Positions 2,396 to 2,705 of a stretch of DNA of 33,214 bases are shown piece by piece. Source of the stretch: a virus (lineage: Duplodnaviria > Heunggongvirae > Uroviricota > Caudoviricetes); IMG/VR virus record IMGVR_UViG_2537561930_000012. One strand, written 5' to 3'. The position numbers and the translations under genes are program-made. Positions within the stretch are counted from its first letter, which is position 1. The number at the start of each line of letters is the position of its first letter. Under the pieces are notes generated by a model. That model had not been told where the DNA came from. It searched no databases and saw only the letters and a list, made by a program, of their open reading frames with translations.

Positions 2396-2471
2396 GGCCC
2401 TTTAGCTCAGTGGTGAGAGCGAGCGACTCATAATCGACAGGTCGCTGGGTCAAATCCAGCAAGGGCCACCA
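2396..2471 (+). tRNA. tRNA-Ile(CAU)-like (ileX/ileZ-type), with non-canonical features
   Basis: 76 nt; 7-bp acceptor stem GGCCCTT/AAGGGCC plus ACCA; anticodon loop CTCATAA; two anticodon-stem mismatches and a T-loop GTCAAAT (G at position 54). Confidence 0.6.
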
Positions 2472-2472
2472 A

Positions 2473-2549
2473 CCGTCACCAGTTCATCAGGAAAGAGCGT
2501 CAACCCTTTAAGTTGAGTGTGCGAGGTTCGAGTCCCCGGTGGCGGTCCA
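2473..2549 (+). tRNA. Divergent tRNA-like gene, anticodon loop CCUUUAA (UUU, Lys-type) with unusual C33; possibly a pseudo-tRNA
   Basis: 77 nt; acceptor CCGTCAC/GTGGCGG (one G-U) plus T-CCA; D-stem GTTC/GAGC; perfect 5-bp anticodon stem TCAAC/GTTGA; T-loop TTCGAGT. Confidence 0.35.
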
Positions 2550-2551
2550 GT

Positions 2552-2627
2552 GCCGACTTAGCTCAGTAGGTAGAGCAACTGACTTGTAATCAGTAGGTCA
2601 CCAGTTCGATTCCGGTAGTCGGCACCA
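2552..2627 (+). tRNA. tRNA-Thr(UGU)
   Basis: 76 nt; acceptor GCCGACT/AGTCGGC plus ACCA; anticodon stem ACTGA/TCAGT with loop CTTGTAA; T-loop TTCGATT. Confidence 0.65.
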
Positions 2628-2630
2628 TAT

Positions 2631-2705
2631 GCGGGCATCGCATAATGGCTATTACCTCAGCCTTCCAAGCTGATGATGCGGGTTCGATTCCCGCTGCCCG
2701 CTCCA
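2631..2705 (+). tRNA. tRNA-Gly(UCC), glyT-like
   Basis: 75 nt; near-identical to remembered E. coli glyT; acceptor GCGGGCA/TGCCCGC plus TCCA; anticodon stem TCAGC/GCTGA with loop CTTCCAA; T-arm GGGTTCGATTCCC. Confidence 0.75.

Follow-up and report, generated by a model that had tools for sequence, protein, structure and literature searches.

A four-gene tRNA cassette between Q and the lysis genes of a lambda-like prophage, probably eroding in this lineage

The cassette and its setting

The 33,214-nucleotide (nt) stretch of viral DNA in IMG/VR record IMGVR_UViG_2537561930_000012 (Caudoviricetes; the whole stretch is called the window here) carries, at positions 2396-2705, a self-contained cassette of transfer RNA (tRNA) genes that belongs to a lambda-like prophage whose gene content resembles that of Qin, and that lies downstream of the late antiterminator gene Q and a terminator. 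ARAGORN calls exactly four tRNA genes in the 33-kb window, all of them here, head to tail and separated by spacers of 1, 2 and 3 nt, at the coordinates and with the anticodons (CAU, UUU, UGU and UCC) that an initial annotation from the sequence had proposed. On the plus strand these are, in order: gene 1, tRNA-Ile2 (CAU), a homologue of ileZ, at 2396-2471 (called by ARAGORN and Rfam, and labelled tRNA-Ile by PGAP); gene 2, a tRNA-like gene at 2473-2549 that ARAGORN calls tRNA-Lys, with anticodon UUU, C33, U73 and an encoded CCA, which derives from the phage gene argN and is called element 2 below; gene 3, tRNA-Thr (UGU), an exact copy of host thrU, at 2552-2627; and gene 4, tRNA-Gly (UCC), a copy of host glyT with the change U11C (position 2641), at 2631-2705, the last two called by both ARAGORN and Rfam. 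The cassette is probably a known kind of late-region tRNA module that is eroding in this lineage, and in composition it appears to be a mosaic, in which the phage pair of ileZ and a remodelled argN is joined to copies of host thrU and glyT that replace argO.

Against the Rfam tRNA model RF00005, with a gathering score of 29 bits, genes 1, 3 and 4 score 60.9, 73.8 and 56.8 bits, and element 2 scores 31.3 bits when scanned alone; the covariance-model check that had been suggested for the four candidates is thus passed by all of them, by element 2 only in isolation. Both the window-scale scan and a scan of 801 nt (E<=10) missed element 2 with RF00005, owing to the speed filters of these longer scans, and by this model it is a marginal tRNA. 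For three of the four tRNAs the E-values at window scale range from 1e-10 to 1e-14, which, together with recurrence in hundreds of genomes, places the cassette far beyond chance.

Stem pairing is full in the Thr gene; the Gly gene has C11.A24 and U13.U22, the latter native to glyT, gene 1 has A27.C43 and G28.A42, and element 2 has A51.C63 and two G.U pairs. At the conserved tertiary and loop positions (U8, A14, G18G19, U33, purine 37, U54-U55-C56 and A58) genes 3 and 4 are canonical throughout; the departures are G54 in gene 1 and C8 and C33 in element 2, with the rest present (A14, G18G19, A21, U54U55C56 and A58 are all canonical in element 2). The earlier descriptions of gene 1, with two anticodon-stem mismatches and G54, and of the second gene, diverged yet keeping all four stems, are both borne out by the sequence, element 2 having a single A51.C63 mismatch and the anticodon loop C32-C33-U34-U35-U36-A37-A38 (CCUUUAA). 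Minimum-free-energy folding of single tRNAs was discarded as a test of function: as even the host-identical thrU copy fails to form a cloverleaf, such folding says nothing on the matter.

The placement of the cassette between Q and the lysis genes, at the site where Stx phages (those of the stx toxin operon) carry tRNAs and their toxin genes, is confirmed by its neighbours. Upstream, at 1431-2252 (plus strand), lies a Q-type late antiterminator gene (Pfam PF03589, E=2.6e-55), named 'antitermination protein' by PGAP in an identical locus. The first lysis gene, downstream at 2998-3213 (plus strand), encodes a P21-type holin (PF04971, E=1.4e-35; class II holin for PGAP), and 3' of it follow a YdfR/DUF1327 gene, a lysozyme gene and Rz, for which Pfam and the PGAP annotation of the identical locus give the same names. 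Between Q and the holin no open reading frame (ORF) exceeds 45 amino acids, so that the toxin gene reported as missing between the tRNAs and the holin is indeed absent from that interval.

Upstream of the tRNA genes, a putative late promoter PR' (TTGATT, 16 nt, TG-n-TAAATT) can be proposed from the sequence at 2258-2285 (plus strand), between Q and the terminator and below the threshold of the promoter scan; in the record of phage 933W the annotated pR' lies within the 3' end of Q. An intrinsic, tR'-like terminator follows at 2333-2359 (plus strand; a 7-bp stem with 5 G-C pairs and a T-run), and weak Rfam matches to Trp_leader and isrK were set aside as merely the hairpin of this terminator. 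A candidate tRNA promoter, pT, with a short leader would occupy 2358-2395 (plus strand; -35 TTGCGG, 17 nt, -10 TATTAT at 2381-2386): its -10 and leader align with the region of 933W annotated as 'pT; putative tRNA promoter', and the window differs from the majority of cassettes at the -35 positions 2362 and 2363 and the leader positions 2387 and 2392. On the far side, a second intrinsic terminator at 2913-2937 (plus strand; 6 G-C pairs, then TTTTCTTTT) closes the tRNA unit before the lysis genes, as an analogous terminator does 3' of argO in 933W. The terminator scan shows the cassette bracketed by two such elements, at 2333-2352 and 2913-2928. Between the last tRNA gene and this terminator the repeat search finds a structured spacer at 2706-2890 (plus strand) with three perfect hairpins, whose arms of 11, 14 and 9 nt lie at 2712-2722/2747-2757, 2765-2778/2824-2837 and 2836-2844/2882-2890. 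The 235 nt from 2706 to 2940 have a minimum free energy of -83.1 kcal/mol (z=-6.6 against shuffled sequences) and match no Rfam family; this spacer travels with the Thr-Gly pair, including in the Stx phage phi467. In the proposed mechanism, the four RNAs would be made as one transcript, both from their own small promoter and by Q-antiterminated late transcription, and RNase P cutting at each 5' end would probably separate them, since the spacers are only 1-3 nt long.

Origins of the four genes

Alignment identifies gene 1 as ileZ, a gene of Stx phages and of other lambdoid phages: 74 of 76 positions are identical, as against 66 of 76 for host ileX. The sequence of ileZ is the same in all eight other phages aligned, and the window departs from it only at C42A (2437) and U54G (2449), scoring 60.9 bits where the canonical ileZ of 933W scores 72.5. 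The suggestion that this gene is degenerate therefore stands in part: G28.A42 and G54 are private to this lineage, but A27.C43 is not a sign of decay, because it is family-wide and a geometry-preserving swap for the G27.U43 wobble of host ileX. The acceptor stem (GGCCCUU/AAGGGCC) retains C4-G69 and C5-G68, the principal TilS determinants in E. coli (PMC11947777); substitutions in the anticodon stem impair this enzyme. That stem has only 3 Watson-Crick pairs in the window, compared with 4 pairs plus A.C in canonical ileZ, and so falls short of the intact anticodon stem of a tRNA-Ile2. Overall, gene 1 is probably a tRNA-Ile2 that has been weakened but can still be recognised as such.

Genes 3 and 4 are of host type. 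The Thr gene is identical to thrU of MG1655 at 76 of 76 positions; the Gly gene matches glyT at 74 of 75 (U11C), and the majority allele of the cassettes is identical to glyT at 75 of 75. Among 45 full cassettes, 2636T occurs in 6 and 2696A in 6, mostly together, and the two turn C6-G67 of the tRNA-Gly into U6-A67, a compensatory exchange in a gene otherwise identical to host glyT. That the Thr-Gly half forms a module of its own follows from Stx phage phi467 (L181, 1-1660), in which the pair and the structured spacer after it lie downstream of stxAB. There stxA-stxB precede the Thr-Gly pair instead of following the tRNAs, which shows that toxin operon and tRNA sub-modules can be joined in more than one order.

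Element 2 has a different history. A full-length alignment, at 77-82% identity, relates it to argN, the gene for Arg-UCG tRNA that comes after ileZ in 933W, VT2-Sakai and phage 2851. Descent from host lysT was rejected, with only 46 of 79 positions identical; the discriminator is U73. Element 2 is thus a descendant of phage argN in which the anticodon arm has been rebuilt from Arg-UCG to UUU with C33. Rfam scores fall from 54.8 bits for argN of 933W to 44.4 for the common UUU allele and 31.3 for the window allele. Between the common allele and the closest argN, that of phage 2851, there are about 12 changes in 77 nt, and none in the adjacent ileZ or the inter-tRNA spacers, a pattern that neutral decay cannot give. 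The changes specific to the UUU clade cluster at positions 30-46, three of the seven loop bases being replaced (U33C, C35U and G36U). In the stems, pair 30-40 went from G-C to A-U, pair 27-43 from U.G to U-A (C-G in 933W), pair 7-66 from U.G to C-G (U-A in 933W) and pair 3-70 from G.U to G-C; all stem changes by which the clade arose are either compensatory or turn a wobble into a Watson-Crick pair, and no stem pair was broken on that branch. In an alignment of 29 distinct alleles, paired cells make up 96.6%, and between the argN and UUU clades both partners were replaced in three pairs (7-66, 27-43 and 30-40), with shuffled and slid controls well below, counts that represent few independent events among close relatives and come from a sample anchored on the 3' end of element 2. 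Comparison of the alleles clearly points to selection on the fold at the time the anticodon changed, and retention of the tRNA fold during remodelling argues that element 2 was then a functional RNA. A scan for more distant relatives with an ileZ pattern gave only 8 loci, all from Escherichia, Shigella or metagenome bins, for which reason the covariation rests on closely related sequences.

A search for a donor tRNA of the new anticodon arm gave 38 matches of 16 nt in IMG/VR, none inside a tRNA and therefore probably due to chance. A third form of the argN scaffold was seen after ileZ in four IMG/VR loci (L028, L040, L102 and L063) on two 5' backgrounds: the anticodon arm is replaced by a 6-bp stem with an 11-nt loop (GACGAC-ACGAUAACAGG-GUUGUU), and ARAGORN makes no call. 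One Stx2c phage lineage has a copy with a 12-nt deletion of the loop.

Ever since the sequencing of Stx phages, lambdoid phages have been known to carry tRNA clusters between Q and the lysis genes, and as a cluster the present one is ordinary. Its closest counterpart is the ileZ-argN-argO cluster of 933W, VT2-Sakai and phage 2851, which occupies the same site, after Q, PR' and the terminator and before the lysis genes. The two share gene 1 (2 differences in 76 nt), the 77-nt argN scaffold of gene 2 (C1-G72, U73 and an encoded CCA), the conserved -10 and leader, and a terminator after the last tRNA. Unlike that cluster, the window has the UUU and C33 loop, copies of thrU and glyT in place of argO and no stx operon, and its allele carries six extra point changes. 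Because the Arg anticodons UCG and UCU are absent (UUU, UGU and UCC being found instead), the cassette lies outside a strict definition of ileZ-argN-argO.

Among 120 IMG/VR loci fetched by way of the element 2 3' end, the architecture Ile-Arg(UCG)-Arg(UCU) was counted 57 times and Ile-UUU-Thr-Gly 46 times, besides partial copies. The existence of an intermediate form, Ile-UUU-Arg(UCU), in 5 of these loci indicates that argN was remodelled within the classical cluster before argO was replaced. A scan at species level placed the module in Escherichia, Shigella and a small number of metagenome bins only. Of 5,426 complete E. coli genomes, 498 cover at least 80% of the 501-nt region, 798 (about 15%) have the UUU element and 3,029 an ileZ-type gene. 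The cassette stands out as a conserved island (about 2381 to 2706): in many carriers the sequence on either side is unrelated, as is usual for a mobile accessory unit in mosaic lambdoid genomes. The induced temperate phages PhiR47_1 and 606R7 carry the UUU element, and the GenBank record of PhiR47_1 already annotates the cassette, as Met, Lys, Thr and Gly.

Two further parallels concern composition. The tRNA cluster of phage T4 (Gln, Leu, Gly-UCC, Pro, Ser, Thr-UGU, Ile-CAU and Arg-UCU) shares the anticodons CAU-Ile, UGU and UCC with the window, and its genes are tightly packed and processed by RNase P. T4-like Thr and Gly genes match the window pair at about 82%; T4 is, however, virulent, its genes are diverged from those of the host and include no UUU member, whereas Thr and Gly of the window are host copies. 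In anticodon-shifted, or 'remolded', tRNA genes, a gene of one isotype gains the anticodon of another and keeps its body; to our knowledge, such genes have been described mainly in organelles and eukaryotes. An open-access literature search on ileZ and argN returned nothing relevant and no report of argN remodelling; as far as the literature was searched, what appears new here is the second gene, an Arg tRNA re-tooled to a Lys anticodon under selection on its fold.

Probable codon supply and erosion in the window lineage

Codon rates per 1,000 were compared between the self-called plus-strand ORFs of the window and 41 coding sequences of MG1655, a small sample. Rates in the window and the host are, respectively, 6.4 and 2.4 for AUA, 14.0 and 5.4 for ACA, 23.5 and 12.0 for ACG, 11.9 and 6.0 for GGA, and 17.2 and 9.2 for GGG. 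Extra dosage for the decoders of AUA, ACA/ACG and GGA/GGG would come from Ile2, once TilS has given it lysidine, and from Thr-UGU and Gly-UCC, and this dosage fits a role in supply because the phage genes use the corresponding codons at about twice the host rate; an ACA bias of a similar kind has been reported for phage SfI (PMC3636060). In the proposed comparison of codon usage with the anticodons supplied, the two accordingly agree for Ile, Thr and Gly, and codon supply is the main reading for these three genes. They do not agree for Lys UUU: AAA stands at 33.2 in the window and 33.8 in the host, AAG at 17.0 and 12.0, and supply is no fitting role for a Lys-UUU tRNA.

Signs of erosion appear when the 45 full cassettes are arranged as haplotypes. 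They form a nested series, from the consensus, through U8C and C11U in element 2, then C4U in element 2 with U11C in Gly, to the addition of C42A and U54G in ileZ. The window represents the most derived haplotype, found in 3 of the 45, and it is mainly for this reason that two of its genes look degenerate. Its private changes in element 2 are C4U (2476), U8C (2480) and C11U (2483). The window allele of element 2 occurs in 171 of the 798 carrier genomes, and 533 of the 798 fall in the 95-99% identity band of the common allele, the majority form; the ileZ allele with C42A and U54G is present in 121 of the 3,029 ileZ-bearing complete genomes. PGAP annotates the common allele (96.1% identical to that of the window) as tRNA-Lys and leaves the window allele unannotated on account of the three further private changes, which explains why matching loci are annotated with three tRNAs. 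For annotation the lesson is that the number of tRNA calls in a single cassette is three or four according to the allele and the tool used.

Compared with consensus cassettes, the window has 6-7 differences over the 310 positions of the cassette, as against 0-6 over 292 positions of the downstream non-coding region, so that in this lineage the tRNA genes have changed at a rate no lower than that of non-coding DNA. Per-site nucleotide diversity is 0.006 for ileZ, 0.007 for Thr, 0.015 for Gly, 0.022 for element 2 and 0.117 for the 15-nt leader. Relaxed constraint is the simplest reading of the changes in this lineage, and element 2 of the window is, from its sequence, probably a hypomorph or a pseudogene in the making. 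Death of the whole prophage could not be confirmed as the cause of decay, the morphogenesis ORFs of the window being intact and only its relative in E. coli 042 visibly degraded. In that genome (L142, 4455-25270) the Qin/ydfJ site holds a heavily degraded prophage that includes a 501-nt region 99.8% identical to that of the window; its holin is truncated and fused beside tail-gene fragments, and the tRNA genes are nonetheless retained. In E. coli WS3294A (L001, 6965-8178) the tRNA region is 100% identical, and an insertion of the IS3 family, absent from the window, lies right after the holin.

Erosion may be taken further, to the view that element 2, together with gene 1 of the window, consists of plain pseudogenes, argN having lost its function and drifted by chance to UUU within a decaying cassette. 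The low and falling model scores, the hits to conserved positions (U8C, C33, U54G and G28.A42), the silence of PGAP on the window allele and a cassette diverged at least as much as its non-coding flank are what such a view would predict, a clearly dead copy exists, with the 12-nt loop deletion, and the 99.8% copy of the region lies in the gutted prophage of E. coli 042. The window copy of element 2 is untruncated: its clade began with compensated changes, and the window lineage then added U8C and two C-to-U changes to wobble. Drift from the outset is hard to square with five stem substitutions at the origin of the UUU clade that were all compensated or upgraded wobbles, with none broken, or with the confinement of about 12 changes to element 2 next to an unchanged ileZ and spacers. 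Nor does it suit the common allele, which is the majority form among carriers (533 of 798) and present in inducible phages, or the spectrum of variants in the UUU clade, where those that break pairs are singletons and those that preserve them reach 16-22%; gene 1, for its part, still scores 60.9 bits and keeps its TilS acceptor determinants. Plain pseudogenes are thus a possible but doubtful account.

Several observations sit uneasily with a known late-region module that is merely eroding in this lineage. The putative pT was not called by the promoter scan and was recognised from sequence alone. The cassette has dropped its Arg decoders, though CGG (12.4 in the window, 3.5 in the host), AGA (5.1 and 1.2) and AGG are the most enriched rare codons, so that supply is not the whole story. 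Both ileZ changes arose on a background with zero changes in 292 nt downstream, a pattern that selection might also explain. In the prophage, the ORFs for terminase, portal and tail are intact. To these may be added the limits already given for the covariation counts and for the codon sample.

Candidate roles of the second gene

Recent work on tRNA-cleaving nucleases makes a role in counter-defence conceivable. AriB of the PARIS system cuts host tRNA-Lys(UUU), Thr-UGU and Asn-GUU at U36AAUC|A41, cleavage that the single substitution U39A is enough to prevent (PMC12409363); the tRNA-Lys of phage T5 neutralises PARIS and rescues infection (PMC11464382), and a phage tRNA-Lys also rescues infection from PrrC170 (PMC11555353), the cut of PrrC being 3' of U33 (PMC2610378). 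Element 2 could correspondingly be a working tRNA-Lys(UUU) variant, a counter-defence that resists PARIS AriB and PrrC and would allow phage translation to continue. It differs from lysT at the AriB site, with G39-U40-U41 in place of U39-C40-A41 (U36-A-A-G-U-U41 against U36-A-A-U-C-A41), and its C33 is the residue 5' of the PrrC cut. Lys codons are not enriched in the phage genes, hence supply cannot explain a Lys tRNA; the anticodon arm has changed with compensation and the rest of the body has stayed fixed; and a third anticodon-arm variant exists on the same scaffold. The element is moreover carried by the inducible phages PhiR47_1 and 606R7, and PGAP accepts the common allele as a tRNA-Lys. 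The same sequence holds features ill suited to a working lysine tRNA, namely C33 where U33 is near-universal and the A51.C63 mismatch in the T stem. A73 is an identity element for LysRS, and element 2 has U73 in its place. Element 2 is 3-5 times as diverse in nucleotide sequence as ileZ and Thr, and the window allele lacks U8 and scores only 31.3 bits. All told, a counter-defence tRNA is an unlikely explanation.

The comparison with T5 runs in both directions. T5 tRNA-Lys(UUU) is likewise phage-borne and differs from lysT at the AriB site, reading U36AAACC41 where element 2 has U36AAGUU41; T5, however, is a virulent phage with more than 20 tRNAs, in which resistance and rescue were established by experiment, whereas element 2 derives from an Arg tRNA, has C33 and U73, belongs to a prophage and is known from sequence only.

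The partner tRNAs add a complication. P2 OLD blocks lambda and HK97 and depletes Thr-UGU, Gly-UCC and other tRNAs. Diverged viral Thr-UGU tRNAs, among them the one of lambdoid HK446, counter it, which E. coli Thr-UGU does not do (bioRxiv 10.64898/2026.07.10.737580). Thr and Gly of the window were also considered as nuclease-evading variants, and this is disfavoured, the two being host-identical or nearly so; the Thr gene, as an exact host copy, is predicted to be nuclease-sensitive, which tells against a counter-defence role for element 2 as well. The Asn(GUU)-Thr(UGU) pair of SfI, Sf6, ST64T, phage 21 and HK446 is another module between Q and the holin that includes Thr(UGU) (PMC3636060). In HK446 the Thr gene differs strongly from thrU and is the one reported to rescue from P2 OLD, whereas that of the window is host-identical and has other partners. 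In the HK446 record (L182, NC_019714) the Asn(GUU) and Thr(UGU) genes lie at 35097-35252, between PR' and the holin, and are unannotated in RefSeq. PARIS (Lys-UUU, Thr-UGU and Asn-GUU) and P2 OLD (Thr-UGU, Gly-UCC and others) thus attack tRNA species that lambdoid phages carry at this site.

Selection on shape without decoding would be another way to account for the conserved body. Element 2 may no longer decode, and may instead be a tRNA-shaped processing module that lets RNase P release its neighbours and leaves the anticodon arm free to vary. Spacers of only 1, 2 and 3 nt are compatible with this, as are acceptor, D and T arms that are nearly invariant across the argN, UUU and 11-nt-loop forms while the anticodon arm takes three unrelated forms. 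Element 2 is kept in nearly all sampled cassettes, although a sample anchored on its 3' end inflates conservation there, and its diversity is intermediate, above that of the true tRNAs and four times below that of the leader. RNase P would cut the 5' end of Thr regardless, leaving only the 3' trimming of Ile in need of element 2; a pure spacer would have no need of compensatory changes in its anticodon stem; and the Stx2c lineage with the 12-nt loop deletion keeps its neighbours. A processing module is on these grounds distinctly unlikely.

The degenerate members might, as the initial annotation had also entertained, be tRNA-derived regulatory RNAs, whether a source of fragments, a sponge or a decoy for an anticodon nuclease. 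Element 2 does keep a tRNA body with an unusual anticodon loop, and over-expressed viral tRNAs have been raised as possible inhibitors of AriB (PMC12409363). In the case of OLD, though, the viral tRNA supplemented the pool and the nuclease was not inhibited (bioRxiv 10.64898/2026.07.10.737580); the encoded CCA and the canonical tertiary positions of the D- and T-loops answer the needs of an adaptor, and as nothing in the data demands a regulatory reading, it is very improbable.

More ambitiously, the second gene of lambdoid cassettes might be a conserved scaffold whose anticodon arm has been swapped repeatedly, with the UUU form as a nuclease-resistant lysine tRNA of temperate phages, a proposal that is rather improbable. 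If true, prophages carrying it could complete induction in hosts with PARIS-type or PrrC-type nucleases, and the neutralisation of tRNA-cleaving immunity by viral tRNAs would extend from large virulent phages to common lambdoid prophages.

Elsewhere in the window, Rfam gives a full-length match to IS009 (209 bits) at 29020-29218 on the plus strand, inside the tail-fibre-assembly ORF at 28677-29258. From there to 31484 about 2.2 kb contain no ORF of at least 70 amino acids (29258-31484), between the tail-fibre-assembly gene and a regulator of the AraC family at 31689-32441, and a fragment of an insertion sequence-type integrase lies on the minus strand at 32483-32836. The whole stretch from 29250 to 31700 is present in only 8 complete E. 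coli genomes.

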